From NCBI GenBank assembly GCA_027053075.1, contig JALUEE010000022.1:1-17556 (forward strand): a DNA stretch of 17,556 nt, given 5' to 3'. The notes beneath the pieces were generated by a model. That model was given only the letters and a program-made list of their open reading frames with translations. It was not told the origin of the DNA and made no database searches. Made by a program: the position numbers and the translations under genes. This DNA comes from a candidate division WOR-3 bacterium. GTDB taxonomy: Bacteria > Hydrothermota > Hydrothermia > B15-G9 > WFZT01. Of the stretch, positions 1,538 to 17,556 are shown piece by piece; position 1 is the stretch's first letter, and each line of letters begins with the position of its first letter.

Positions 1538-3223
1538 TCACCACGGTTTTTCCGGGGGTTCGATGAACATGCGGAGCTTTGAAGCTCGCATTGGATGCTG
1601 AAGTTTCTTTAGGGCTTTTACCTCGATCTGGCGGATTCTTTCCCTTGTTACGTTGAATATCTGGCCCACCTCTTCCAAAGTCTTCGGTGGCTGGTCACCA
1701 AGACCAAACCTGTACTCGATGACCTTTCTTTCCCTTGCGGAGAGTGTATCGAGTACCTCTTCGAGCTTTTCCTTCAAAAGATTCTCTCTTGCATATTCAA
1801 ACGGGGTTTTCTGGAGGTCATCTACGATGAAGTCACCGACAAAGTTATCCTTTTCCTTTCCGATAGGCTTATCAATTGAAATGGGTTCTTTTGCCGCATC
1901 TATTGCCTGTTTCACTTTTTCAATAGGCATATCGAGGTAATCGGCAATTTCCTCGACAGTGGGCTCACGGCCGAAATCCTGCATCAAAGCACGGGATGCC
2001 CTTGAGACTTTAGTAATGGTCTCAATCATGTGAATCGGCACCCTTATAGTTCTCGACTGATCAGCTATTGCCCTTGTGATGGACTGTCTGATCCACCATG
2101 TGGCGTAAGTTGAGAACTTAAAGCCCTTCCTGTAGTCAAACTTTTCTACAGCTTTTATCAAGCCTGCGTTACCTTCCTGTATGAGATCAAGAAATTCGAG
2201 CCCTCTATTCAGGAATCTCTTTGCAATTCCGATAACAAGTCGGACGTTGCCTTCCACCATCTTTGCCTTCGCATCCTCAAGGTCTCTAAATTCTTTTCGT
2301 ATCTTTTTGTAGGTTTCAAAGGCTTCCTCTGAAGTCATGCCAAGCTCTTCTTCGATTGCCCGTATCTCCTGCTGGATCTTTGTCATCCTTTCTGAGATGC
2401 CATTCAGTAATTTGCGACTCTCGCTATCAAGCCCACCGTTCTCACGTGAGCGAATCCAGATCTCAGCTGCATTGTCCTCAAAGTTCTTATATCTGTTTTC
2501 GAGTGCCCTGAGTTTCTTAACTTTTTCGTCAAACTCTTTGGAAATTGCAATTACCCGCTTGAACTGGGGCTTAAGATTGACGATTTTCCTCCTAATGGAC
2601 TTCATGCGGGCTTCTAAGGTTTCCCGCTCCTCGTCGGTTAGCTCCTTCTTATTCCAGTAAACCTGGATTTCTTCGTAAATTTTTTTGATGGATTTGAAGG
2701 CGCGATTGACCCTCTCCTTTTCCTTCTTATTTTTCTGTCTGGAGGTCCAGTACTGGGAATCAACCTGCACGATCTCCTCGATCTGGGTGATTCCCCTGTC
2801 GGTTTCATAAACGAGCTTCATGAATTTATTCAGGCCAAACTTTGTGTTGAAGAGTATTTTCATTATGTTTGTTCTTGCATCGTCAAGCTGCTTGGAGAGC
2901 TGGACTTCCTGCTCTTTTGTCAGGAGTCCAAGGTCGGAAATCTGCTTCAGATATGTTTTGGCAGGGTCATCACCGGAACGGAAGTAGTCATCGGCTGAGA
3001 TTTCGTCTTTCTTTTTCTTTTTCTTCTTCTTTTCTATGGTTTCTACAATTTCAATCCCGTTTTCCATCAGGGTGACCATTATGTCATCGATCATCTCGCT
3101 GTGGGAAAAGTAAGGAGGAAGCATCTTGACCACGGTATCGTAAGTCACCTTTTTCTGGCCATCAAGCTTCTTTACAATTTCCTCAATAACTTCTTTTTTG
3201 GTTTTAATCTTTATAACCGACAT
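1538..3223 (-). CDS. rpoD: RNA polymerase primary sigma factor (sigma-70)
   Basis: Region 1.2 [11 protein letters not shown], long non-conserved region, region 2 [35 protein letters not shown], region 4 [27 protein letters not shown]. Directly downstream of dnaG. Confidence 0.98.
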
Positions 3224-4930
3224 TTAGAGAAGACCTCCTTTTCCCCTCAAATTTTTCTTAATTTCGGACATTCTTTTTAAAAAATAGTCCATTTCTTCTT
3301 TATTGTTTGCCTTTTTGGCCTCTTCAAATCTGCGTCGGGCCTCACGATAGTCTTTGCGGTATTTCCAGAAACGGATCTTTTCCTCAAGAAGTTTATAATT
3401 CTGGCTAATATTACCTGCCTTGAGGATGGCCTCACTTACAGAAACTCTCAAAATTTCACTTCCTTCTGCCATTATTTCTTCGTACCCAAGCCCCTTTTTA
3501 ATTGCTCTCACCAATTCTTTTGAAAGGGAATCACTAAAATCATCTTCATCAAAAAGTTCCGCCACAATCTCAATTAGTTCACGATTATTCAGTATGTTTG
3601 CAAGAATGATAAAATCCGCTGTTAACTTAACTTCTACCCTGTTTGACTTCTTATTAATACGTGGTTCATCCAAAAATTTCAACCCTTGGTTTCTCAAGGA
3701 TTCAACAGGGATTCCCGAGAGCTTAGAAAGGCGGGAAACATAAACGTCTCTTGTGATAGCATCAGGTATGCTGTAAATGTTTTTAAGAATCCCCTTAATT
3801 TCCTCGCTAAATTGAGCCGGAGAGTCTTTTACACGTTCCGCATTTTTATACTGGTAATCAATGAAATCCTCAGCTTCGTCAAGAAAGTGTTTTATGGTAT
3901 CAGGACCAAATTTGTCGATTATACTGTCCGGGTCTTCACCTTCTGGTAGGAGTGAAATGGTGACGTTTAAACCTGCTTTTAGGAGTATGGGGATGGACCT
4001 GTCAACTGCTTTTCTTCCTGCCTCGTCGCCATCGTATAGCAGAAGAGCATTTTTTGTGTATCTTCTAAGGACAAGTGATTGGTTTTCCGTGAGAGCTGTG
4101 CCCATGGGAGCAATAGCATTGGAGAATCCCGCTTCGTGCATTTTTATGACATCAAAATATCCCTCAACAACTATCGCAAAGCCTTTCATCCGGATGGTGC
4201 TTTTTGCCTGGTAAAGTCCGTAAAGAATGTCTCCCTTTTTGAAAATTTCACTATCAGGTGAATTTAAATACTTGGGCTGATTTTCATCGGATAGAGCGCG
4301 ACCACCGAAGGCCACAATATTCCCACCCGGTGTGAAAATGGGGAAAATAAGCCTGTTCCTGAAATAATCAATTAAAACACCGGAATCCGTTTTCTTTGCA
4401 AGACCAGCACTCATGAGAGTTGCTCTATCAAAGTTTTTCGAGATTGCCCTATTCACAAAAGATTTTCCATCAGGCGGTGCAAAGCCCAACTTAAAATTGG
4501 CTATAGAGCGGGATTTTATTTTTCTTTTTGTGTAAAGGTACTTGAGAGCATCTTTGCCTTCGGGTGACATGAGGAGCTGGTGATAATAATCAGCAGCAAA
4601 CTGAAGCGCGGCGTAAACGGGAGAGGTTTTTCGCTCCACCTCCGATGAAGGAATCTCAATGCCATATTCTTTTGCAAGTTTAAGAACCGCTTCTCTGAAG
4701 CTTAAGCCCTCGATATCCATGACAAAGCGGAAGATGTTACCGGATGCACCACAGCCAAAGCAATGATAGACCCCTTTGTCGGGATCGACGTAAAATGAAG
4801 GTGTTTTCTCCTGATGAAAAGGACAAAGGCCTTTGTAGGACTTGCCACTGGGCTTTAGATTGACATATCTGCCAATGTACTCAACTATATCAACGGCCTC
4901 GCGTACACGCTCTATAAAATCTCTATTCAA
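3224..4930 (-). CDS. dnaG: DNA primase
   Basis: Zn finger CPFHQEKTPSF...CFGC, FRNRLIFPI, PKYLNSP, TOPRIM EGYFD and YDGD. TTG start with GAGGTGG SD. Confidence 0.98.
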   Translation of the reverse strand: MNRDFIERVREAVDIVEYIGRYVNLKPSGKSYKGLCPFHQEKTPSFYVDPDKGVYHCFGCGASGNIFRFVMDIEGLSFREAVLKLAKEYGIEIPSSEVERKTSPVYAALQFAADYYHQLLMSPEGKDALKYLYTKRKIKSRSIANFKLGFAPPDGKSFVNRAISKNFDRATLMSAGLAKKTDSGVLIDYFRNRLIFPIFTPGGNIVAFGGRALSDENQPKYLNSPDSEIFKKGDILYGLYQAKSTIRMKGFAIVVEGYFDVIKMHEAGFSNAIAPMGTALTENQSLVLRRYTKNALLLYDGDEAGRKAVDRSIPILLKAGLNVTISLLPEGEDPDSIIDKFGPDTIKHFLDEAEDFIDYQYKNAERVKDSPAQFSEEIKGILKNIYSIPDAITRDVYVSRLSKLSGIPVESLRNQGLKFLDEPRINKKSNRVEVKLTADFIILANILNNRELIEIVAELFDEDDFSDSLSKELVRAIKKGLGYEEIMAEGSEILRVSVSEAILKAGNISQNYKLLEEKIRFWKYRKDYREARRRFEEAKKANNKEEMDYFLKRMSEIKKNLRGKGGLL

Positions 4931-4932
4931 AT

Positions 4933-6897
4933 CTACACCACCTCGTAGAGTGAATCGAGAGGCACCTCAATTTTTGTTTTTCCGACCCTTACATAAGCTT
5001 TATTGTCCACTATTTCCACCAGCTCTGCGGTAAACCCGAAGGGTTTTATTCTGTAAACTTTTCCGACCTCCGGGTTTTCAGCTTTCTTTTCAAAAATATC
5101 GACTTCCTGACGGATATTTTCAAGGGTCTTTTTGATTTCGCGTGCACGCTTGAGCTTTGCCTCTTTTTTCACCTCTTTGTCGAGGGTTTTGATAAGTTCT
5201 CTTATCTCCCTTTCACGAGATTCAACTATTGCTCGAACCTTTCTTTTTGATTCTCGGGTGATTTTTTCTTCCTGTTCTTTGATGAATTTTTCCTTCTCCC
5301 GAATTTCTTTTAAAAGGCTCTGGAGCTCCCTCTCCCTTTCCTTGAGCTTCCTTGTGAGCTCTGCCATCTCCTGATCGATTCCCTCAAGGTAGCTTTTTGC
5401 CTCGTCTATCAGGTCCTCTGGTATCCCTGAATTTTTCGCTATATCAAGTGCATGGCTTTCCCCGATTTTTCCGACCTCGAGCCTGTAGTTGGGTTTGTTG
5501 GTCACCGGGTCAAATCCCATCTGCGCATTTAACATCAATGGGTGTTTTTCGATGAAAATTTTGAGGGGTGAAAGATGAGTATTGGCAAAAACCCGTGCCC
5601 CTTTCTCTACGAGTCTTTTGATAATAACAAATGCAAGGGCTGCACCTTCCCTTGGATCAGTTGAAGCGAGGAGCTCATCCAGCAAAACAAGGTCATCCTG
5701 CTCTGCCTTCTCAAGGATTTCTCTGATCTGTCTCAGTAAGGATGTGAAAGAGGACTCACCCTCGATAATATCCTGCTGGTCCTCAAATCCACCGGTGAAG
5801 ATGTTTCCAACATAAGGAATCTTTGCGTACTCGGCAGGCACGGGTATCGCATGCTTCATCAGGAGAAAAATAACTCCTATAGTTTTAAGAAAAACCGTTT
5901 TGCCCCCGGCATTGGGGCCGGAGACAAGGAGTGCCCTGTATTTTGCAGGAAAATCAAAGTTAAGGGGCACGACTTTATCGTACCCTTTTGCCTTTAAAAG
6001 GAGCGGATGTCTTGCATTTCTAATGGTGATGTCACCGGTTTCTGAAAACTCTGGAATGCTGCCGTAAAAATCGGCCATAAACTCAATTTTTGCGTTCATG
6101 AGCTCAAGCTCACCAAGAAGGTCATAGATTTCCCTCAGCAGCGGGTATAGTTCATGCAGCTTGTCTACAAGCTCTCTCTTTATGCGCTCAATCTCCTCTT
6201 TTTCTGCATCAATGACAGAGATGTACCTGTTTTGCAGATCAATGGTCTCCATGGGTTCGATATAAACAGTCTCACGAGTATTGGAAAATCCGTGAACAAC
6301 CCCGTTTACCCGCGCATGTGTGGCAACCGGAAGAACAAATCTGCCGTTTACGATTGTGACAAGACGATCGCGGAGTAGATTTTTCTTAGAGTAATACTCC
6401 ATGAGTTCGTTCATTTTATTGAGGATCTGGTTCCGCAGGCTCTTTTTCTGCTGTCTGAACTTCATAAGCTCCGGTGTCGCATCATCCCTGATTTCACCAT
6501 CTGGCATTATCTTTTTCTTTATTTCGCGTCTGATCCCTCTTAAAAGCTGTGGGTCATGGGGAAGTGCAAGGGGTGTGTCCATGAGGGAGAAGTAGAATTT
6601 TTCGTAGGTTTCGAGGAAAACGGAGAAGTTGTAGATTTCTTTTGTGGTAATAGAAGCCCCTGCCCTTACCTTATCGAGGGAAGAGCTTAATGGAGGTATG
6701 TCTCCAAACGCAAACTGAACACCTTTTTTCTTCAAACCGAGGAGGAAGTTTAATTTTGAAAATTCCTCCTCTATCTCTTCCCTTGAATTGAGAGGGGCAA
6801 GTCTCTCAAGTGAAATCCTGCCAGGTTCTGATAAAAGGTAAGAGCCCAGTATCTCCTTTATAGAATCGAATTCCAGGCTTTTCAGGGCTGATATCAT
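4933..6897 (-). CDS. mutS2: MutS2-family ATPase (KOW-like C-terminus, no Smr domain)
   Basis: N-terminal LEFDSIKE, GVVHGFS..ETVYIEP, ARHPLL, Walker A GPNAGGKT, SSFTS, LLDEL..TDPREGAAL, TH motif, G.S.ALDIA, coiled coil, KOW-like end. Confidence 0.92.
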   Translation of the reverse strand: MISALKSLEFDSIKEILGSYLLSEPGRISLERLAPLNSREEIEEEFSKLNFLLGLKKKGVQFAFGDIPPLSSSLDKVRAGASITTKEIYNFSVFLETYEKFYFSLMDTPLALPHDPQLLRGIRREIKKKIMPDGEIRDDATPELMKFRQQKKSLRNQILNKMNELMEYYSKKNLLRDRLVTIVNGRFVLPVATHARVNGVVHGFSNTRETVYIEPMETIDLQNRYISVIDAEKEEIERIKRELVDKLHELYPLLREIYDLLGELELMNAKIEFMADFYGSIPEFSETGDITIRNARHPLLLKAKGYDKVVPLNFDFPAKYRALLVSGPNAGGKTVFLKTIGVIFLLMKHAIPVPAEYAKIPYVGNIFTGGFEDQQDIIEGESSFTSLLRQIREILEKAEQDDLVLLDELLASTDPREGAALAFVIIKRLVEKGARVFANTHLSPLKIFIEKHPLMLNAQMGFDPVTNKPNYRLEVGKIGESHALDIAKNSGIPEDLIDEAKSYLEGIDQEMAELTRKLKERERELQSLLKEIREKEKFIKEQEEKITRESKRKVRAIVESREREIRELIKTLDKEVKKEAKLKRAREIKKTLENIRQEVDIFEKKAENPEVGKVYRIKPFGFTAELVEIVDNKAYVRVGKTKIEVPLDSLYEVV

Positions 6898-7091
6898 TCT
6901 TCGGACTTTCTCATCTTCCGCAAGAGTCTCCTTCTGGCAGCCATCAGTTCTTTCTTCCTTTTCTCTGAAGGTTTCTCATAGAACTGAATCCTTTTCAGGT
7001 CCTGCATTATTCCATCTTTGGACAGAACTTTTCTGAACCGCTTCATCAGGCTTTCGAAGGATTCTCCGTCTCTCAAACGGACTCCTGACAT
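6894..7091 (-). CDS. rpsU: 30S ribosomal protein S21
   Basis: ESFESLMKRFRK...FYEKPSEKRK. Strong SD AAGGAGGTG. Confidence 0.96.
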   Translation of the reverse strand: MSGVRLRDGESFESLMKRFRKVLSKDGIMQDLKRIQFYEKPSEKRKKELMAARRRLLRKMRKSEE

Positions 7092-7131
7092 TCAAATCAC
7101 CTCCTTAAGTTTTATAAAGGACAGGGGCTCC

Positions 7132-7839
7132 TTACAGATCATCTTTTAAATGCAAAGTTATGCCGAGGGCAATCACTCCCGCAGTTTCTGCCCTCAGAAT
7201 TCTTTTGCCAAGTTTCACAGTTTCGAATCCCCAGCTTTTTGCCATATGTACTTCATCTTCCTCAAATCCTGACTCTGGCCCAACGAGAAGTAAAATTTTA
7301 TTTGCAAGCTCCTGATTTTTCAAACTTTTCTGAGCGCGCGGCTCAAGCATCAAAAGCGTATCATAATTTTCAAGAAACCCGGGGATTTTTTCAAACTCTA
7401 CAGGCTCATGAATATTGGGCAGCTTTGCTCTGCCCGATTGCTTCATTGCTGAAATTGCGACTTTCTTCCATCTTTCTACTTTTCCTGCTCCGGGTCTGTA
7501 TGACTTTGCAGTGATGAGAGGGATAATTTCTGAAACCCCCACCTCGGTTGCCTTTTCCACAAAATAGTCCATGCGCTCACCCTTTATAACTCCCTGCATG
7601 ATGGCAACATGGGTTTGAGGATCGGCTTCTGACGTGGTTTTTTCTTCGATTTCCAGTACTGCGATGTTGTCCTGGATTTCCTCGAGGGTGGCGAAATAGA
7701 CATTCCCCAGTCCGTCCACCACTCTCAATCTATCCCCCCTCTTACTCCGTGTGACATGGATGGCATGGTGAAATTCCTGATCTGTGAGGTAAATTCTGCC
7801 GTTTTTAATGAGCTCGGGTGGTGCATAATAGGTGATCAT
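7132..7839 (-). CDS. rsmE: 16S rRNA m3U1498 methyltransferase
   Basis: [49 protein letters not shown]. Follows dnaJ with an ATGA overlap. Confidence 0.96.
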
Positions 7840-9026
7840 CTAAACGCGTTTTTGATCTTTTCAAAAACACTTTCCTCGTGCCCCACCTGGCCGTTCCCCT
7901 CAAACTCTGCCAGTTTCTCGATCAATTCCCGCATTTCGGGTGTGAGTTTCTTTGGTACCTTTATCTCGACTTTGACATATAGGTCACCTCTACCACCATT
8001 GAGTCTCGGCATGCCTTTGCCCCTCACTCGAAATGTTGTGTGACTGTGTGTACCTGGTGGAATGTGGATTTTCACCTTCTCGCCAAGGATATCCTTAAGT
8101 TCAATATCGCCACCGAGGACGGCCATTGAGTAAGAAATAGGGACTTCAGTGTAAAGGTCATCACCCTTGCGCTTAAACCTATCGTGGGGCTTTTCAACTA
8201 CTGTGGCATAGAGGTCTCCATGAGGTCCACCTTTGTAGCCAGCGTGACCTTCTCCTCTCAATACAACGGACTGCCCTTCGTGTATACCACGGGGGAATCC
8301 AATCTTGAGCTCTACCTTTTTCTTTACGCGGCCTGTTCCGTGGCAAACCGGGCACGGGTCTTTGATAATCACACCTTCACCGTGGCATGTGGGGCAGGTG
8401 GTGGTCTGTACAAACTGGCCAAAGAATGTCCGCTGTACCTTTCTTACAACACCAGTGCCACCACAGGTTGGGCAGGTTTCGACTTTACCAGATTTTGAGC
8501 CTGTTCCATGACAGGCGTCACAAACCTCGTATCTCTCAAGTCTAACAGTTTTCGTTGCCCCTTTTGCGATTTCTTCAAGGGTCAGTGGAATTTTTATGCG
8601 AATATCCTCACCCTTTTGAGGTCCGTGGTGTGTAACTCCGTATCCATCCCTCCTGCGACGTGGACCTCCGAAAATGTCACTCATGAAGTCGAAAAATCCA
8701 CCACCAAAATCAATTCCAAACTCTCTGAATATGTCCCTTAAATCATCAAAATGTGAGAAATCGTGCCAGGTAAAGTCACCCTGCTTGAATACACCCTGAA
8801 GACCTTCATGTCCGTACTGGTCGTAGATTTTCCTCTTTTCAGGATCAATTAAAACTTCGTATGCCTCAGAAATTTCTTTGAATTTTTCCTCGGCCTCTTC
8901 TTTATTATCAGGATTTTTATCAGGGTGGTACTTTATGGCAAGACGGCGATACGCCCTTTTAATTTCTTCGGGCGTTGCGTTACGCGGAACACCAAGGATT
9001 TCGTAGTAATCTCTCTTCTTTTTCAT
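7836..9026 (-). CDS. dnaJ: Chaperone DnaJ
   Basis: J domain with HPD, G/F-rich region, four CxxCxGxG repeats, C-terminal domain. Confidence 0.99.
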
Positions 9027-9067
9027 GTTGGTAAATAATAATGTTCGAGGGGATTAAAATCCATAGT

Positions 9068-9107
9068 TTGAAAGGGGGCGGAGGCAGCTTCGCTGCCTCC
9101 GCCCCCT
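9068..9107 (-). terminator. Strong hairpin between dnaK and dnaJ (terminator/attenuator or mRNA stabiliser)
   Basis: 16-bp perfect stem AGGGGGCGGAGGCAGC-TTC-GCTGCCTCCGCCCCCT (9073-9107), 4 nt after the dnaK stop, with a short U tail. Confidence 0.7.
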
Positions 9108-9111
9108 GATT

Positions 9112-11010
9112 TTAATCCACTACCTCATAGTTTGTTGAATCGTCACCCTTATCCTGCTGCTGTTGCTGCTGGGTCTGTGCCCCTGCTCCTGCAGCCTGCT
9201 GGGCCTTATAAATCTCCTGTGTCACTTCGTTCCAGATACGCTGCAGATTTTCAAATTCCTGCCTGATCTTTCCGGCGTCATCCTGGTTGAGCACATCTCT
9301 TAAGGATTTGATTGCACTTTCCACCTGAGATTTCTTATCTGCCGGTATCTTGTCTCCGAGTTCCTTGAGGCTCTTTTCCACAGAGTAAGCAAAAGCATCA
9401 GCCTGATTGCGGAGATCGATAAGCTCTTTCCTCTTCCGGTCTTCCTCAGCATGTGCCTCAGCTTCTTTTACCATTCTTTCAATCTCTTCCTCAGTCAGTC
9501 CGGTTCTCGCATGAATCTTAATTGAAGCTTCCTTGTTTGTGCCCTTGTCAACGGCTTTCACATGCAGTATTCCATCTGCATCCAGATCAAATGTTACTTC
9601 TATCTGGGGCACGCCTCTTGGGGCTGGTGGAATTCCTGTAAGCTCAAACTGCCCAAGCAGCCTGTTCTCCGAAGCAATAGGTCTTTCGCCCTGATAAACT
9701 TTGATTAAAACACTGGTCTGGTTGTCTTCAGCAGTTGTGTAGATCTTGGATTTCCTTGTTGGAATGGTTGTATTCCTTGGAATCACAACGTCAAATACAC
9801 CACCGAGAGTTTCCACACCGAGAGAGAGTGGTGTAACGTCAAGGAGAACAATGTCCTTGTCCTTGTATTCACCGGCAAGGATTCCTGCCTGAATGGCAGC
9901 TCCAATGGCCACGACCTCATCGGGGTTGATTCCCTTGTGAGGCTCTTTGCCGAAAAACTCTTTCACCATCTGCTGAACGAGTGGCATCCTTGTCTGACCA
10001 CCAACAAGGATTACCTCGTCAATATCCGCAGGTGAAACTTTGGCATCTTCAAGGGCCTGACGGCAGATTGTGATGGTTCTCTCGATCAGGTCACGGGACA
10101 TCGCCTCAAGTCTCGCACGGGTAAGCTTTCTCTCAAGATGCTTGGGGCCAGAAGCGTCGGCCGCAATAAATGGCAGGGAGATGGTGGTTTCCATCATTGT
10201 TGAAAGCTCTTTCTTCGCCTTCTCCGCTGCTTCCCTGAGCCTCTGGAGTGCCATTTTATCCTGTCTCAGGTCGATTCCGGTCTCGTTTTTGAACTCTTCG
10301 ATAAGCCATTCAACTATTCTCTGGTCAATGTCATCGCCACCAAGATGGGTATCACCCTTTGTGGCTTTTACCTCAAAGACACCCTGATCAAGCTCGAGGA
10401 TGGAAATGTCGAAAGTACCGCCACCGAGGTCATAAACCGCGACACGGATGGTTCTGTCAGTCTTGTTTAAGCCATAGGCCAGAGCTGCTGCTGTTGGCTC
10501 GGGGAATACACGTAAAACCTCGAGTCCTGCAATGATTCCTGCGTCTTTGGTTGCCTGCCTCTGTGCGTCGTTGAAGTAAGCCGGAACTGTAATGACAGCC
10601 TTCTTGACGGGTTCACCGAGGTAGCTTTCAGCGGCTTTTTTGAGGTATGAGAGAATCTTTGCCGAAATCTCTTCAGGGGTGAAGTTTTTGTTTACTGCCG
10701 GTATGAATATCTCCACGCGATCGTTCTTTCCACGAACTACTTTATACGGTACTCTTCTAATGTCTTCGAGGGCCTCGTCGTATCTGCGGCCCATGAATCT
10801 TTTTACAGAATAAACTGTATTCTCAGAGTTTGTGATTGCCTGTCTTTTTGCAAGGGAACCAACAAGGACCTCAGAGTCCTTAAAGCCAACAACAGAGGGA
10901 GTTAATCTTTCTCCCTCAGGATTTGGAATAACAGTTGGTTCACCACCTATGACAACAGCTACCACAGAGTTTGTCGTTCCAAGGTCAATACCTATGATCT
11001 TTTCGGCCAT
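9112..11010 (-). CDS. dnaK: Chaperone DnaK (Hsp70)
   Basis: [62 protein letters not shown]. Confidence 0.99.
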
Positions 11011-11011
11011 A

Positions 11012-11530
11012 TTACATCCCTCCCTTCGTAGGGTCTTCTTTTGCCCTTGCGGGCTCTTTGGAAACTGAGACCCTCGCTGGTCTCAGCAGTTTGTTTTTGA
11101 ATTTGTAACCTCTCTGGAATTCCTCGACTACCACACCAGGCTCCACTTCACTGGTTTCTTTAACTGAAATGGCCTCGTGGAGTCTCGGATCGAATTTTTC
11201 GCCTCTTGAATCAAATGGCTCAAGCCCTTCCTTTTTCAGTACTTCAAGGAGGCTTTTGTAAATCATTTCCACGCCTTTTTTGATGGAGTCCACATCAGTG
11301 GCCTCTTTCATCGCGTCGAGAGCCCGCTCGAAGTTGTCGAGAACCGGAAGTAGCTCGAAAACGAGGCGTTCATTGGCATATTCAACGGCCTTCTTCCACT
11401 CTGCCTCGATCCGCTTTTTGTAGTTATCATGATCTGCAAGGGCTCTCAAATAAAGGTTCTTATATTCATCTCTCTCTTTTTTGATTTTCTCCATCTCCTC
11501 TTTTAACCTCTGTGTCCAGTGCTTTTTCAC
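11012..11530 (-). CDS. grpE: Nucleotide exchange factor GrpE
   Basis: [38 protein letters not shown]...[13 protein letters not shown] start with AAGGAGG SD. Confidence 0.97.
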
Positions 11531-11573
11531 AGGGCCAACCTCCTTGATGGGAAGTGTTCATTGTGAGTAGTAA

Positions 11574-11602
11574 TAGATACCTGTTTATAATTTTATTGTC
11601 AA
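11574..11602 (-). promoter_or_regulatory. Putative sigma70 promoter of grpE-dnaK
   Basis: Perfect TTGACA (11602-11597), 17-bp AT-rich spacer, weak -10 TATCTA. Confidence 0.45.
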
Positions 11603-11799
11603 GCCGTTACTCAAGAATTTTTATAAAAGGGTGTAAGGACGTAACCTCTGTTAAATTCAGGACTTGGGCTAACTTTAATTCAAAAGGAATCCTATGGCTT
11701 GAGTTTTTGTAGATGTTTATGAGGGTTTCCCAAGAGGGGAATTTTGTTGATTATAGCGAGTTCACTGAGTTTCCAACGAAAAAAGTGTAATCCGCAGGT

Positions 11800-11828
11800 T
11801 TGTTCTGTCGTTCATGCGGTGCTATAAT
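11800..11828 (+). promoter_or_regulatory. Sigma70 promoter of mazG (extended -10)
   Basis: TTGTTC (11800-11805), 17-bp spacer, TATAAT (11823-11828) preceded by TGn. ATG is 8 nt downstream. Confidence 0.7.
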
Positions 11829-11836
11829 TCTGCACT

Positions 11837-12583
11837 ATGAAAAGGTCACTTGATGAAATATGGAAGATTGTGGAGAGGCTGAGGGCTCCAGACGGCTGTC
11901 CCTGGGATCGGGCACAGACCAATGAAACTATTCGCTTTGATCTCATCGAAGAGGCATACGAGGTTCTTGACGCAATTGAGAAAAAAGACTGGCAGTCTCT
12001 AAAGGAAGAGCTTGGAGATGTGATTTTCCTCGCTCTTTTACATGCAAAGATTGCGGAGGATGAGGGGAAATTTACTATTGATGATGTCATTGATACTATC
12101 GTCAAAAAAATGATTCACAGGCATCCTCACGTATTTGGAGACAAAAAATTCAAGAATCAGGAAGAGCTCCTTGAAAACTGGGAGAAGAGTAAGGGATACG
12201 GGATTTTTGAGCATGTGAATTTTTCGCTTCCCGCGTTGATGCTTGCACAGAAGGTGGGCAATCGAGCTGCAAGGGTGGGATTCGACTGGACGAAGGGAGA
12301 AGATGTGCTTGAAAAGGTCAAAGAGGAAATCGAAGAGCTAAAGAATGCGAAGGATGAGGAGCAGGTTGAAGAAGAAATGGGGGACCTACTGTTTTCCATC
12401 GTTAATTATGCACGTCATCGAGGTATAAATGCTGAAGATGCCCTGAGAAAGACTGTGAAAAAATTTGTCAAAAGGTTTTCATATATTGAAAGGAAGGCAA
12501 AGGAAAAGGGCAAGGATTTAAACGACATGTCCCTCGAAGAGATGGACAAACTCTGGGAAGAGTCAAAAGATAAGAAAAAGTAA
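11837..12583 (+). CDS. mazG: Nucleoside triphosphate pyrophosphohydrolase MazG (tandem domain)
   Basis: LRAPDGCPWDRAQT, EEAYEV, EELGDV, KMIHRHPHVF, LPALMLAQKV...VGFDW, EEMGDLLFS. Confidence 0.97.
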   Translation: MKRSLDEIWKIVERLRAPDGCPWDRAQTNETIRFDLIEEAYEVLDAIEKKDWQSLKEELGDVIFLALLHAKIAEDEGKFTIDDVIDTIVKKMIHRHPHVFGDKKFKNQEELLENWEKSKGYGIFEHVNFSLPALMLAQKVGNRAARVGFDWTKGEDVLEKVKEEIEELKNAKDEEQVEEEMGDLLFSIVNYARHRGINAEDALRKTVKKFVKRFSYIERKAKEKGKDLNDMSLEEMDKLWEESKDKKK

Positions 12584-12652
12584 AGAAAACCAATCACCTT
12601 TCCCACAATTTAACCCCTTGGTGGCACATCGAATCTCATATTTTGCCTGAAT

Positions 12653-12840
12653 ATGTAACCCATCACCTCAATCCTCTCCCCGCAAGAATTTATGCGGGGG
12701 AGAGGAAGATTTTTGGGATGTGAGTAAAATCCTTTTTCAAACCTGTTCCACTATGCCCCTGCATCTCCAAAATTTTCACACACTGCGAGCCAAAATCCCC
12801 TCCTTCCTTTGGAAGGAGGGGTTAGGGGAGAATGGTGAAA
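12653..12840. repeat. ~185-bp composite repeat (REP doublet), copy 2
   Basis: Homologous to 322-505. Palindromes at 12673-12705 and 12797-12821, with their asymmetric tails in opposite orientation. Confidence 0.85.
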
Positions 12841-12923
12841 GATGACACATTTAAAGTTCTGCTACATGTTCAAACATCTGATAGCTATGAAGGACTTAAA
12901 ATTTAAAAAATTTTAATATGTTT

Positions 12924-12967
12924 CCCCTCACCTAACCTCTCCCCGCAAGAATTTATGCGGGGAGAGG
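12924..12967. repeat. REP-like palindrome
   Basis: CCCCTCACCTAA-CCTCTCCCCGCA-AGAATTTA-TGCGGGGAGAGG, near-identical to 328-372 and 12660-12705. Confidence 0.88.
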
Positions 12968-13126
12968 GAGTGTTTTAATTTGCTATCTCAAAGTTTTAAA
13001 CAAAAAGCTGTGCACTTGGGCAAAGTGAATTGTCACATAATTATCTTTGAAACATGTGTAACCACAACATCAAAAATATTTCCCTACACAAGAGAAGCTT
13101 GTGTTATGAAATGGCTACAAACTTTT

Positions 13127-13170
13127 CCCTCCCCCGCTTGAGAAGCAAGCGGGGGAGGGTGAGGGAGGGG
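13127..13170. repeat. REP-like palindrome (reverse orientation)
   Basis: CCCTCCCCCGCTTG-AGAAG-CAAGCGGGGGAGGG, 14-bp stem, with TGAGGGAGGGG tail. May also act as a terminator for rlmB. Confidence 0.8.
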
Positions 13171-13201
13171 TCGTTCCGCTTGAAAATTCAAAATAAAATC
13201 T

Positions 13202-13927
13202 TCACCCCATATCCCTCACTGCAAATGCCAGGGCAATGGCAAAGGCTGAGGCTGCATTTAATGAGCCTGTTTTCCCCTTCATTGGGATACTAACTACATA
13301 ATCACTTTCTTTCAAAGTAAGCCGGCTCACACCCTTATCCTCTCCACCTATCACGATGGCAAGAGGGAATGGAAATTTGAAATTGAAGATATTTTCTCCA
13401 CCTATCTCAACGGATACAACAAAACCACCTTCTTTTTTAAAGTTTCTCAAAAAGCTTGCAATATTAGGAACTACAGCAATGGGGATGTGAAATATCGCTC
13501 CTGCTGAAGCCTTGACCACTGTTTCTGATAGGGGGGCTTGGCGTCGTGATGGAATCACGACGCCAAGCCCCCCTAAAACCTCCGTTGTCCTTATTATGTT
13601 CCCCAAATTCTGCGGGTCCTCTACATGATCAACCACCGCTACAATCCCTCGATTTTTTACAACCCTCTCAATAATCTCTGAAGCTGAAACCGTCTCTATT
13701 GGGCTTATCCTCGCAACTATACCCTGGTGATTTACATTCCCCACCATACTTTTGAGCTTTTCCCTCGATACAAGGGACACAGGAATCCTGGATTCTTTGA
13801 TCCTGTCGTAAATCTTCTGGTCAATTCTCACCCCCTTTTGAATATAAATTTTTGTGATACGCTCAGGATTGGTCTGGAGTAGCTCATAAACGGGATTCCG
13901 GCCAAAAATGAGGTTATCCGTTTTCAT
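13202..13927 (-). CDS. rlmB: 23S rRNA Gm2251 2'-O-methyltransferase (TrmH/SpoU family)
   Basis: LIFGRNPVYELL, NHQGIVA, DHVEDPQNLGNIIRT, KASAGA, IGGEDKGV, SIPMKG...SLNAA. Start placed at ATG 13927 (MKTDN). Confidence 0.92.
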   Translation of the reverse strand: MKTDNLIFGRNPVYELLQTNPERITKIYIQKGVRIDQKIYDRIKESRIPVSLVSREKLKSMVGNVNHQGIVARISPIETVSASEIIERVVKNRGIVAVVDHVEDPQNLGNIIRTTEVLGGLGVVIPSRRQAPLSETVVKASAGAIFHIPIAVVPNIASFLRNFKKEGGFVVSVEIGGENIFNFKFPFPLAIVIGGEDKGVSRLTLKESDYVVSIPMKGKTGSLNAASAFAIALAFAVRDMG

Positions 13928-15032
13928 GCCCACCTTCTTCATAGAGCTCCACAAGTTTCTCCACTATCCTGCGGGACGCGTTGCCATCTAATTTGTAAAA
14001 AAGCTCGCGTTTATATTCTTCGGCCTTCTCTTTCATCTCGTCCGTGGGATTCAGGGCACGCTCGATGGCCGCGGGAAGCTCCTCGGGCCTCGAGATATGC
14101 ACAAAGGCACCTTCCAAAAACTCCCGGTTGTCCTCACTCAAAATAGGAGTTCCGTCATGGTGCTTGAGCTTTTCATAAGGAAGGTTGTAGATGATACCAA
14201 ACTTTCCAATGGCCAGAAATTCAAACATGGTGCTCGAGGCCTCCGTGATCATGGTATCCGCAACGTAAATAAACGGCAGGATATTGTGCTCTTCTTTGGG
14301 AATCAAAACCGCGTGGGGATACTTCTTAAGCCGTTTTTCAAAGATTCTGTGCTGGGAATGGGGTGCATATTTTCCCCTCCACGAGTAGGGATGAAGTTTG
14401 ATGATAAGATTGTAATCCCTGGTGTATTCGAAGATGGCATCCTTCAGGGCGTAGATACTCGTTGGCTTGTAAGTAGGGGCATAAAGGACCGTTTTCTTCT
14501 CTGGATCAAGTCCCCATTTTCTCATAATTTCTTCCCGATTTAATTTGCCCTGAAAAATAGGGTCAAGCTTGGGATATCCCACCACGTATACCTCATTCTT
14601 CAAAAGGGCACCTTCCTCAATGATTTTACGCTTCCGGTAGGGCCCCTCAACGAATATGATATACTTTGTGTCTGGCTGGCTTTTCAGATTTCTGTAAAGA
14701 ATGGTCTTTATGCCTGTGCCGTGGTTTACAAAGGCAAGGATTGTTTTGCCATAGAGGTGTGCGTCTCTGATGGTATCCCCTGTAATAACGATGTCAAAAC
14801 CACTCTTGGTTTCAGCAATTTTCAAACCTTCGCGTCTCAACTGTTCGTGAATTTTGTCTTTTAGGCTTCTTGTAAAAATGGAAAATTTACGCTCTTTTTC
14901 GTCCTCACAGGAGAAATAGATATCAAAACGAGGGTCATCTTTCATAACCTCATAAATGGGGTCGAGTGAGGCTCTGTGGTAGAGAAAGCTCAGTCTGAAG
15001 AGGACTTTAATCTTACGGGAAGAGTTCTCCAT
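13914..15032 (-). CDS. CDP-glycerol glycerophosphotransferase family protein (TagB/TagF-like, GT-B fold)
   Basis: NHGTGIK, VGYPKLD, KTVLYAPTY, LIIKLHP, ADTMITEASS.MFEF, DGNASRRIV motifs. Confidence 0.82.
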   Translation of the reverse strand: MENSSRKIKVLFRLSFLYHRASLDPIYEVMKDDPRFDIYFSCEDEKERKFSIFTRSLKDKIHEQLRREGLKIAETKSGFDIVITGDTIRDAHLYGKTILAFVNHGTGIKTILYRNLKSQPDTKYIIFVEGPYRKRKIIEEGALLKNEVYVVGYPKLDPIFQGKLNREEIMRKWGLDPEKKTVLYAPTYKPTSIYALKDAIFEYTRDYNLIIKLHPYSWRGKYAPHSQHRIFEKRLKKYPHAVLIPKEEHNILPFIYVADTMITEASSTMFEFLAIGKFGIIYNLPYEKLKHHDGTPILSEDNREFLEGAFVHISRPEELPAAIERALNPTDEMKEKAEEYKRELFYKLDGNASRRIVEKLVELYEEGGHENG

Positions 15033-16011
15033 TGGGTGTCTCTTCTTCCTCCGGGAGTCCGAGGTAAACGTATCTTTTCAGATTCTGCATAAATTCAGAC
15101 CAGGGGGAATCGGGCTCTCTGCGTCTGTTTCTCGCATCAATGAACATCCATATTTTGGAATCCATGTTGTCTGCAAAGTGTAGAATCTGGGCTTCAAGGG
15201 TCATTGGTCGAACAGGTGAGCCCCATTCGAGCTCTCCGTGGTGGGAAATAACCAGATGGAGTAGCTGTAATTTGAGGTCTTCCGGGAATCCACCCCTGAA
15301 GTTCTTCATTTCCCGGATTTTCCGCATGATCATTTCGTAGCCTATCACCAGATGTCCAAGAAGTCGTCCAACATCTGTCCGGTCTATGCTCGGAAAATAG
15401 GAATATTCTTCGGTTTTGCCAATGTCATGTAAGAGCGCTCCGGTGACGAGCAGGTCAAAATTTACCTCTTTGTAACGGGAGGCAATGCTTATACAGAGTT
15501 CGGTTACGTTTAAAGTGTGCTCTAAAAGGCCACCGATATAAGCGTGATGGTGTGATTTGGCACCGGGGGCCATTTTGAATTTTTTCAGGAATTCAGGATC
15601 ACCGAAGAAACGCTTGAGAAGCTCTTTCATATGGGGGTTTTTGACCCTTTCGATTATTCTGTGGAGTTTTAATACCATTAGCTCGATATCATGCGGGGTG
15701 GTTGGGATAAAGTCGGTAACATCGTAGTCTTCAAGTGGTGTGACTTCAGCGATTTTTATGGTTATCTCCTCACGGTATTGGTCAACTGTGCCGCGAATTT
15801 TTATTACCTCGCCAGCCTTAATGTGAATGCGGTGCTTTTCAATGTCGTCAAAGACTCTTGCGGGAACTGAGCCGGTTGCATCAGAAAGGACCACATCGAG
15901 GAAGTCTCCACCGTCCCGCTTTTTCTTTGTTTTTATACTTGAAACGAGGAATGCATCCTCAATTTCTTCGTTGATATGGTCTCTTAAGTCCTTCACAAAA
16001 ACCTGCTTCAT
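15013..16011 (-). CDS. yhaM: OB-fold + HD-domain 3'-5' exoribonuclease (YhaM/Cbf1-like)
   Basis: OB fold (LSDATGSVPARVF), HHHAYIGGLLEHTL, LLHDIGK, GHL, SHHG.LEWGSP, HFADNMDS. Confidence 0.9.
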   Translation of the reverse strand: MKQVFVKDLRDHINEEIEDAFLVSSIKTKKKRDGGDFLDVVLSDATGSVPARVFDDIEKHRIHIKAGEVIKIRGTVDQYREEITIKIAEVTPLEDYDVTDFIPTTPHDIELMVLKLHRIIERVKNPHMKELLKRFFGDPEFLKKFKMAPGAKSHHHAYIGGLLEHTLNVTELCISIASRYKEVNFDLLVTGALLHDIGKTEEYSYFPSIDRTDVGRLLGHLVIGYEMIMRKIREMKNFRGGFPEDLKLQLLHLVISHHGELEWGSPVRPMTLEAQILHFADNMDSKIWMFIDARNRRREPDSPWSEFMQNLKRYVYLGLPEEEETPNGELFP

Positions 16012-16049: not shown

Positions 16050-16115
16050 TTGATTTGGGTGAGATTTTATTGAGTAGTCAACATCTTGAATTTTTTGTAG
16101 AATTTAAGAGGAAGG

Positions 16116-16133
16116 CCCTCTCCCTCAATCCCT
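16116..16133 (+). repeat. Half REP-like element (interrupted target of the IS110)
   Basis: CCCTCTCCCTCAATCCCT resembles the REP leader (cf. CACCTCAATCCT at 12664-12675), but the palindrome that follows in other copies is missing. Confidence 0.6.
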
Positions 16134-16195
16134 TCTTCTATAATGTTTGTTGTTATTTATGATGGTTATCACTAAAAATATAGGGAAAACACTTC

Positions 16196-16375
16196 GGGAG
16201 GAGATGGTATGAGTGGGTGGAGACCGGCCTTGGTCCTGGGGCATGACCCCGAGGGGGAGATTGGTCCCTCCACCTGGGGTATAAGCCTGGATTGTTATTC
16301 GTGTAAAAAATCACTCCATTCAGAAGGTTAGGCTATACCCCATTCGGTGGAGGCTCCCACTCTCCATCTCCTCCC
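16196..16375 (+). ncRNA. Putative IS110 bridge RNA
   Basis: Closing stems 16196-16207/16364-16375 and 16211-16217/16356-16362 enclose two arms (16222-16266, 16267-16353), each with a large internal loop. Loop sequences match the junction and REP DNA. Confidence 0.72.
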
Positions 16376-16399
16376 AATAAAAAAAACAGGAGGTGCATT

Positions 16400-17556
16400 A
16401 TGGATACTTTATACGTTGGTATAGACGTAAGCTCAAAAGAACTATTCGCCTCCTTCTTCGATGATAATTCAAACCCCGTCATATCCTCCGCTAAATACCC
16501 TAATACCCCTGATGGCTGGCATGATTTCTCCCAACTCATATCCTCACTCTCCAAAAACTTCAAAATCGTCTGCGGCCTCGAATCCACCGGCGACTTCCAT
16601 ATCGGTATCCTTCATACCCTCCAAGCCATGGATAACATTGAAGTCCATCAACTCAACCCTGCCTCCGTCCGTTACTTTGCTAAAGCACTCAACGTCAGTG
16701 CCAAAACCGACCGTATCGATGCTCAAATTATAGCCCGCTACCTGGCCACTATCAAACCTCAGGGAGACTATCACGTCCCACTTTTCCTCCAACGTCTGCG
16801 TCATCTCGTTCGCACAAGACGTACCTTCACAGAGAATATGGCCTCTTTAAAGAATCAATTGTACCACATACTGAGAATTTATTTCCCTGGATACAGGATT
16901 CTTGTGAAGAGCGGGTTGCCTATCAGTTTTCTACACATACTCCAGAGATTTCCATCACCACATTTAATACTGGGAGCTGGAGAAGAGGAATTAATGAAGA
17001 TAAGGGTTGGGAGGCAGAAAATAAGGAGGAGCATAGTCAGGAAGGTAATAGATGTAGCGAGGAGTGCACCGATACAGGAATTAAGAGAGGCGGAGATGCT
17101 GATAATAAAGACAATAGTGAGGCAGATATTGGAGATCGATGGAGTGATAAAGGAGATAGACAGGGAAGTGAAGGAGATAGTTGAGGAATACTATTCGGAG
17201 TGCAAGATAACGAGCATACCGGGGATAGGCTGGGTGACAGCGGGAGTGATAATAGCGGAGGCAGGGGACATAAAGCGGAGGTTCAGGAGCAAGAAGAAAT
17301 TTGTGGGGTATTGTGGGTTGTATCCTACGGTGTGGGAGAGTGGTGATATGCGAAGGAGGGGGAAGATGACGAACAAGGGGAACAGGATGTTGAAGATGGC
17401 ATTTTTGCTAGCGGGTGTGAGTGCGAGGCGGACGAATCCGCAGATAAGGGCGTATTATGAGAGGTTATTGAGGCGTGGTAAGAGCAAGAGGGCAGCGGGA
17501 GGGGCGGTAGCGAGGAAATTAGCGGAGATAGTGTATGCGATAGCGGTTAGCGGAGA
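16400..17556 (+). CDS. IS110-family DEDD recombinase/transposase (3'-partial)
   Basis: Manual translation is open to the window end (385 codons): MDTLYVGIDVSSK...CGLESTG...LNP...KTDRIDAQIIA...SIPGIGWVTAGVIIAEAGD...YCGLYP..WESG...KGNRMLK...AVARKL. SD AGGAGG at 16388-16393. Confidence 0.96.
   Translation, partial: MDTLYVGIDVSSKELFASFFDDNSNPVISSAKYPNTPDGWHDFSQLISSLSKNFKIVCGLESTGDFHIGILHTLQAMDNIEVHQLNPASVRYFAKALNVSAKTDRIDAQIIARYLATIKPQGDYHVPLFLQRLRHLVRTRRTFTENMASLKNQLYHILRIYFPGYRILVKSGLPISFLHILQRFPSPHLILGAGEEELMKIRVGRQKIRRSIVRKVIDVARSAPIQELREAEMLIIKTIVRQILEIDGVIKEIDREVKEIVEEYYSECKITSIPGIGWVTAGVIIAEAGDIKRRFRSKKKFVGYCGLYPTVWESGDMRRRGKMTNKGNRMLKMAFLLAGVSARRTNPQIRAYYERLLRRGKSKRAAGGAVARKLAEIVYAIAVSG

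Follow-up and report, generated by a model that had tools for sequence, protein, structure and literature searches.

A locus on a contig of a candidate division WOR-3 bacterium raises the question of what is encoded by the 180 bases at positions 16196–16375, which lie a short distance upstream of a recombinase gene, and of how their predicted fold relates to the guide RNAs of known IS110 elements. The window, i.e., the whole stretch of DNA analyzed, is 17,556 nt long. It is very probable that these bases encode a bridge RNA that would guide the adjacent recombinase; for this RNA, a fold is predicted in which a closing helix holds the two arms in a three-way junction. At the level of sequence, the boundaries of the element, its CT core, the empty site, the four guide matches, and the covariation can be regarded as established. 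Elsewhere in the window, the interval 1538–16011 carries what we take to be housekeeping genes (RpoD, DnaG, MutS2, RsmE, DnaJ, DnaK, GrpE, MazG, and an RNA methyltransferase), and a YhaM-like HD protein and a glycerophosphotransferase in the same interval were checked by domain and family searches.

The recombinase, the element, and its landing site

The gene downstream had been called an IS110 recombinase in an earlier note made from the letters of the window, and this assignment was confirmed. The protein contains PF01548 and PF02371, i.e., a DEDD RuvC domain and a Tnp domain with the catalytic serine; it scores 235 bits against NF033542, where the cut-off is 140, and the residues D9, E61, D104, D107, and S314 are all intact. 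Its best solved relatives are IS621 and ISCro4, both by sequence and by fold; the predicted fold has a pLDDT of 89 and matches the solved relatives with an E-value of 8e-16 at approximately 20% identity. The contig stops within the gene, so that 385 of 431 amino acids lie in the window, and full 431-aa copies are present on contigs C14 and C98. The GC skew switches within the gene, the first 450 nt being C-rich (−0.37) and the last 550 nt G/purine-rich (+0.59); the switch is partly present in the relatives L050 and L051 and absent in distant ones, and no long inverted repeat accounting for the skew of the gene was found.

The 180-base stretch belongs to the left end of an IS110 element that is about 1.74 kb long, has a CT core, and is present in multiple copies. 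In the genome, the element has 14 left junctions and 12 right ones; the left ends form two variants, A (n = 5, with the window's copy among them) and B (n = 9), and all 12 right junctions end in CT. For the full copy on C14, a length of 1739 nt was computed from the end positions. Joints omitting the 1739-nt element were found in contigs of three public runs, although many of their sides are shorter than 30 nt and these joints may instead be other copies of the target repeat. In the sister genome G004, the orthologous site is empty, its sequence tracking the window up to 16133 and then continuing as a palindrome; run X9 has the same empty site with the same continuation. Because both depart from the window right after 16133, the core is placed at the CT of 16132–16133, and the target consists of the initial bases of a hairpin repeat that is dispersed in the genome. 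Joining the flanks at the CT core rebuilds the empty site of G004 and X9, and the window's copy has three extra nucleotides at its left junction. The features of the element and of its landing site are as follows:

16080..16131, + strand: left half of the dispersed hairpin repeat that is the target (many genome matches; palindrome in G004 and X9)
~16124–16131, + strand: left target, within the left half of the hairpin repeat
16132..16133, + strand: CT core, the crossover dinucleotide (divergence from the empty site; 12 right junctions)
16134..16136, + strand: extra TCT, a repeat of the left end's first three bases (missing in the empty site)
16137..16399, + strand: left non-coding end of the IS110 element, 263 nt (start common to the 14 left junctions)
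16139..16144, + strand: presumed −10 hexamer TATAAT, 18 nt from the right end's TTGACA in the circle
16140..16150, + strand: left arm of an 11-bp perfect subterminal inverted repeat (complete copy L001)
16388..16395, + strand: Shine-Dalgarno of the recombinase gene (sequence; GGAG conserved in the alignment)
16400..17556, + strand: IS110 recombinase gene, cut by the contig end (PF01548 + PF02371, NF033542, residues)
340–372, 606–634, 731–756, 12673–12705, 12797–12821, 12936–12967, and 13127–13159: empty copies of the target repeat

The right end of the element measures about 180 nt as against 263 nt for the left end. In variant A, the two arms of the subterminal inverted repeat, a perfect one of 11 bp, lie on either side of the junction of the joined ends; in the relatives, 4–10 of the 11 bp are found, partly fixed by the promoter hexamers. 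Empty sites resembling the target repeat number tens to hundreds in the genome, and at least seven empty palindromic copies lie in the window itself, in two intergenic clusters. The repeat at 13156 (minus strand) is empty in the window and filled by a variant-B left end in its G004 counterpart (L099, G004:C11); this left end stops after about 30 nt, running into a frame that we take to be an IS3-type orfA. An empty orthologue of the C98 site was not found in G004, and the ends of the element were not found in G001–G003 and G005 (82–96% complete). The plasmids searched gave no DNA match to the element, the closest plasmid proteins being about 30% identical. Judging by the labels of the runs, the habitat is likely hydrothermal.

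Fold of the stretch and concordance of its guides

On the + strand, 16196–16375 folds to −94.8 kcal/mol, as against −68.6 ± 4 for 200 dinucleotide shuffles (z −6.55), none of which folded as well. The − strand folds equally well (z −6.80), and the strand is therefore given by the guide matches and the promoter rather than by folding. Every string and coordinate that the earlier note had reported for the stretch was verified, 16196–16207 being the exact reverse complement of 16364–16375, and the three-way junction was recovered by the same fold. In the prediction, the closing helix and the donor stem have pair probabilities of 0.99–1.0 at 37, 60, and 70 °C, the 45-nt leader forms only weak hairpins, and the two arms abut without a linker; in place of an IS621-type fold, a closing helix and abutting arms are found. 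The closing helix carries a compensatory change from A-U to G-C in variant B. No Rfam family reached its gathering score in the window. The parts of the predicted RNA are as follows:

16196..16217, + strand: 5′ strand of the closing helix, 12 bp + 7 bp (fold, pair probabilities)
16216..16221 with 16269–16274, + strand: 6-bp remnant of a competing helix (prefix folds ending at 16275–16330)
16222..16266, + strand: target-binding loop with a 4-bp stem (guide matches, alignment)
16229–16237, 16238–16250, 16251–16259, and 16260–16261: left guide, hairpin, right guide, and handshake-position AT of the target loop
16267..16353, + strand: donor-binding loop arm with a long stem (guide matches, alignment)
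16291–16299, 16301–16314, 16322–16326, and 16327–16328: left guide, hairpin, right guide, and handshake-position GT of the donor loop
16356..16375, + strand: 3′ strand of the closing helix (fold, exact complement)

Two details of the arms had to be revised. The 6-bp stem GACCGG/TTGGTC proposed for the first arm exists, but only 4 bp of it are conserved (16222–16225 with 16263–16266), the two extra G-U pairs being missing in variant B and in the relatives. The two symmetric 10-nt loop strands were not borne out; the guides are instead 16229–16237, 16251/16253–16259, 16291–16299, and 16322–16326, as assigned by the IS621 rules in the accessible text of PMC11208160. The right target guide (16251–16259) is complementary at 9/9 positions to the core and the right target as they stand in the empty site. 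The left target guide matches the C14 flank at 8 of 9 positions, in register, and at the window locus it forms five Watson-Crick and four wobble pairs, 1 nt off the core and out of register. The left donor guide forms eight Watson-Crick pairs and one wobble pair with the right end, and the right donor guide is at 5/5 positions the reverse complement of the core plus the start of the left end. The left donor guide ends in TC in the window and in CT in most relatives; AT and G fit the donor/target handshake positions by eye, a comparison made for the window's element.

Variants A and B carry different guides that match different targets, and their right donor guide and left-end start differ in step. 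At 13/14 left junctions of the genome, the left guide of the element's own variant has the top score; at the C89 left junction, the guide of the other variant scores higher. The right flanks fall into two classes, four being matched best by guide A and seven by a B guide, with one tie, and a left end is linked to a right end only in C14 and C98. The joined ends give TTGACA-18 nt-TATAAT, a consensus sigma-70 promoter sequence. A promoter scan of the linear locus gave nothing above chance for the RNA (2 hits versus 1.3 expected), and no circle junction or back-joint was found in the contigs of four runs, which drop rare forms, or in viral contigs.

The concordance extends to the relatives. A query built from an alignment of 20 proteins led to 22 genome and 40 metagenome loci; an earlier scan of genome contigs with a single protein had given 191 pattern hits, none of which was confirmed. 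The loci used were those with enough upstream sequence plus the own-lineage copies; 54 of them have the donor-loop anchor, and L036 and L087 are without it. In L036 (~1080–1150), the donor loop is deleted from the left guide to the closing stem and the left-end start is missing, and this locus is probably a decayed copy. The right donor guide and the junction are reverse complements of each other in 48/48 loci with a called left end, in five sequence classes; for the six loci with an uncalled left end, inspection by eye indicated that L050 agrees and that L046 differs at one donor position. The left target guide match scores 6.97, as compared with 5.40 when permuted and 5.81 for the best of 2000 permutations (n = 43); the right target match is 4.41 of 5 versus 3.41, with a best permutation of 3.94 (n = 32), and the right flank of L085 does not match its guide. 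The right end with the −35 hexamer was located in 39/51 loci, where the left donor guide matches it; the −35/−10 spacing is 17 nt in 34/35 loci and 18 nt in the window's lineage. The left donor guide was set at 7 nt in the clade, an assumption of 8 nt having recovered the right end only in the window's lineage. These tests overstate the agreement somewhat because kin are not independent; the guides nonetheless vary freely between close relatives. Within the genome, the structured region is present only at the left ends of the element. The claim of a bridge RNA with a target and a donor loop is thus upheld by guide concordance in the genome and in about 50 homologous loci and by the covariation of the arms.

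The G004 loci L016/L098, L101, and L010/L100 and the vent runs X2, X3, and X4 hold further guide variants of the element, with mixed left and right target guides that suggest recombination between co-resident variants. Many relatives, such as L033, L034, L083, L085, and the L030 group, have a second −10-like hexamer a few bases 5′ of the structured RNA, which suggests an internal promoter that may be active from the integrated element and would be weak in the window's lineage.

The register of the left guide at the junction was analyzed with the guide register fixed, a good left-target match being at least 5.5 of 7. Good matches at 0, 1, 2, 3, and 4 nt from the core were found in 7, 3, 6, 2, and 2 of 43 loci, respectively, versus expected counts of 1.0, 0.7, 0.6, 0.7, and 0.5; in one genome, four copies with one guide have offsets of 3, 1, 1, and 2, the last two weakly supported. 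Extra bases occur at 5/18 left junctions (two genomes), four of these having 3 nt identical to the beginning of their own left end and one having 1 nt, and none were seen at right junctions. The offsets appear to be in part natural spacing in the target, as with the 1 nt at the window locus, and in part added sequence. As regards the extra triplet at 16134–16136, a contig of run X1 crosses the site with identical letters, and L100/L010 of G004 carry the same triplet; the variant-B copies on C50 and C56 show a matching triplet, judged only against similar empty repeats, and C98 has one extra base. Such bases could be produced by slippage, by off-register excision with reinsertion, or by repair after single-strand transfer.

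The closing helix and its competitors

Conservation of the fold was assessed with alignment A2, which comprises 44 of the 49 distinct left ends and omits L031 and L044, which nearly duplicate L030, as well as L043, L046, and L078, the three that diverge most. RNAalifold on A2 found both arms, with two-sided changes in 17/23 pairs, and recovered neither the closing nor the competing helix. Both helices were named by the analyst and counted afterwards, a procedure that favors both. For the named three-way structure, 87% of the A2 cells pair and two-sided changes occur in 29/36 pairs. On the gene tree, the target arm has 12 independent compensatory edges (1/300 in the null) and the donor arm has 16 (0/300). 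For the closing helix, 68.6% of the cells pair, 0/500 shuffles do as well on score and 57/500 on pair count, and the gene tree gives four compensatory edges (17/300 in the null, p about 0.06); this covariation is weak partly because of register shifts between lineages. In a register-free comparison, the leader pairs with its own tail better than leader shuffles do in 30/44 rows, and a closing helix of at least 6 bp forms in 43/44 when both arms are enforced, a count made without a shuffle control. In the window's lineage, L050, and L051, the element's own leader-tail pairing beats every partner from other groups, and L050 and L051, the two nearest relatives, retain the closing helix with a wholly different sequence. 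The folding and covariance check that had been proposed for the stretch speaks for the arms (1/300 and 0/300) and gives a weak result for the closing helix (17/300); the suggestion that the closing helix and its three-way junction are a fold variant is supported for this lineage and is plausible clade-wide, although the covariation there is weak. Meanwhile, positions 71–83 and 139–153 of A2 contain one motif common to the target and donor hairpins clade-wide, a pseudo-repeat, and the donor hairpin of the window's lineage has decayed to an A-rich loop in which this clade motif is lost.

In most relatives, the leader can instead form 12–19 bp with the 5′ side of the donor stem, and this competing helix excludes the closing helix and unfolds the donor arm. 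It possibly reflects a two-state RNA or the fold of a short target-only form, as in CazIS110-1 and ISEc21. In a two-state RNA, the leader would have two alternative partners: pairing with the 3′ tail would leave the donor arm folded, and pairing with the 5′ strand of that arm would give a long target-only hairpin; a molecule would then serve as target or as donor guide, with the window's lineage biased toward the closed state. This reading, which supplements the bridge RNA explanation, is considered tentative and less likely than not. It is favored by the pairing of 78.8% of the cells as against 36–49% when the strands are slid, by 0/500 shuffles on score, by 13 compensatory edges on the gene tree (0/300 in the null), by the 39/44 rows in which the competing pairing beats leader shuffles at p ≤ 0.05, and by the 23/44 rows in which the closed and alternative states lie at most 5 kcal/mol apart; in addition, short target-only RNAs dominate in CazIS110-1 (10.1101/2025.10.25.684509) and in the ISEc21 seekRNA (PMC11187229), according to the accessible text of both reports. 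Against it stand 64 breaking edges on the same tree, 270/500 shuffles on pair count, and a low cognate specificity with respect to other groups (0/13 in one group); in the window's lineage, the forced alternative state reaches 6 bp in only 1/6 rows and the closed state is ahead by about 10 kcal/mol. The relevance of the pairing may also be confined to a truncated RNA or to an intermediate of folding. In predicted prefix folds, the 6-bp remnant forms in partial transcripts and yields once the 3′ strands are made.

It may also be asked whether the closing helix matters at all, since it could be an incidental product of the G/C-rich flanks of an element from a hot habitat, trimmed or dispensable, with the arms as the working RNA. 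We regard this as doubtful. The weak tree-aware covariation and the register shifts between lineages agree with it, as do the processed target-only and donor-only RNAs known in other IS110 elements from the accessible text of the reports; however, the helix is kept in L050 and L051 with a different sequence that beats every other-group partner, it shows a compensatory change between variants A and B, and the leader-tail pairing exceeds leader shuffles in 30/44 rows. A role of the helix as a translation switch, in which its 3′ strand would be available for pairing with the Shine-Dalgarno of the recombinase gene whenever the helix is not formed, is improbable: this strand does contain a near complement of the Shine-Dalgarno, but full-length folds keep the closing helix at 0.99–1.0 at 37, 60, and 70 °C, the 3′ strand never takes the Shine-Dalgarno, and the latter, which forms weak pairs elsewhere at 37 °C, is largely unpaired at 70 °C. 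Very improbable is the reading that the structure is a repeat-derived hairpin or a terminator-like DNA feature with no guide RNA. Although G/C palindromic repeats abound in the genome and both strands of the stretch fold equally well, the loop strands change together with four distinct segments of DNA across phyla and the region occurs only at left ends, and this candidate is largely refuted by guide concordance.

Relation to known systems and significance

In every feature that can be tested from sequence, the system is an IS110-group bridge RNA. According to the accessible text of the sources cited, the IS621 RNA comprises a 5′ stem-loop, a long stem in the target arm, and a flexible linker (PMC11208160, PMC11208158; PDB 8WT6), its loops lie about 80 Å apart and are supplied by different RNAs (PMC11208158), and the target stem of IS622 (ISCro4) has 12 bp (10.1101/2025.05.14.653916; PDB 9T56). 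The window's element shares with IS621 and ISCro4 the left-end location, the sigma-70 promoter sequence formed at the junction, the CT core, the internal hairpins, the guide order (left target, right target, left donor, right donor), a DEDD + serine recombinase, and palindromic repeat targets, and it has candidate dinucleotides at the handshake positions. Unlike IS621, it has a predicted fold in which the arms abut with no linker, the target stem has 4 bp, and the 5′ and 3′ flanks form a 19-bp closing helix instead of a 5′ hairpin; its recombinase has 431 aa and is about 20% identical to that of IS621.

The subterminal repeats have 2–3 bp in the IS110 group and 7–17 bp in IS1111, and IS1111 elements have a long non-coding region and RNA downstream with a protein of 330–350 aa, compared with 395–455 aa in the IS110 subgroup, as given in the accessible text of PMC11208160 and PMC11187229. 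The 11-bp perfect subterminal repeat of the window's element thus differs from the IS110 group and falls within the IS1111 range; unlike IS1111, its RNA lies upstream and its protein of 431 aa is within the IS110-subgroup range. Like CazIS110-1 and ISEc21, it is an IS110-group element with an upstream non-coding region and a junction promoter, and like CazIS110-1 of the thermophile Caloranaerobacter azorensis, it is multicopy; the RNAs of these two systems were sequenced, whereas the RNA described here is predicted from DNA, and the systems are set apart by description. It has been reported for ISPpu10, in the accessible text of 10.64898/2026.03.19.712850, that insertion takes place into palindromic repeats at a CT core and that the right guide is strict and the left guide permissive. 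The CT core in palindromic repeats is the same here, and a permissive left guide would fit the loose left match; in ISPpu10, however, the stem-loop lies 5′ of the target, and here the core lies within the first bases of the palindrome. The accessible text on ISPpu10 does not describe a left guide with a shifted register.

Six folds of IS110 bridge RNAs are reported in the accessible text of PMC11208160, and 86 structural models for 32,190 bridge RNAs, many unlike IS621, in that of 10.64898/2026.10.21.760802; the clamped fold may already sit among the published models, the comparison having been made by text descriptions. A text search of the literature found no IS110 bridge RNA with a three-way junction, an alternative conformation, or a bulge, and no thermophilic bridge recombinase with a bridge RNA; the donor-guide motif of the clade is absent from the supplements of PMC11208160 that were searched.

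By analogy with the work on IS621, ISEc21, and CazIS110, the element would circularize or be copied out, and its joined ends would form the TTGACA/TATAAT promoter, whose transcript would contain a leader of about 45 nt, the RNA, and then the gene. Recombinase dimers would bind each loop, and the circle would be recombined at CT into the hairpin repeats of the genome. As the arms abut without a linker, a complex that contains both loops would need to draw them from two RNA molecules or from the halves of a processed one. Most likely, the closing helix lends stability to the target stem of 4 bp and maintains the folded state of the donor arm.

Bridge recombinases are being actively developed for genome editing, and to our knowledge, nearly all of those tested are close to IS621. 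The present locus offers a fully mapped distant system, about 20% identical, with recent transposition and a fold predicted to be stable to 70 °C, and its natural variants, already aimed at different targets, make a ready swap experiment. One more fold is only moderately surprising given tens of thousands of bridge RNAs and 86 models already predicted; the clamped, linker-less fold nevertheless provides a test of whether target and donor loops need separate RNAs. Similarly, the conserved competing helix would be a concrete origin for the abundant target-only RNAs of other IS110 elements, and if the sliding register of the left guide is real, it bears on the prediction of off-targets. A more speculative picture, which we hold to be possible rather than probable, is that the long IS110 recombinases of this clade use a self-switching bridge RNA whose folding determines the proportion of target guides to donor guides, and thereby that of insertion to excision, with a left register that slides by 0–4 nt. 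In this picture, the vent lineage would have become locked in the clamped form by its 19-bp helix and would have given rise to co-resident variants, each directed at other hairpin repeats.
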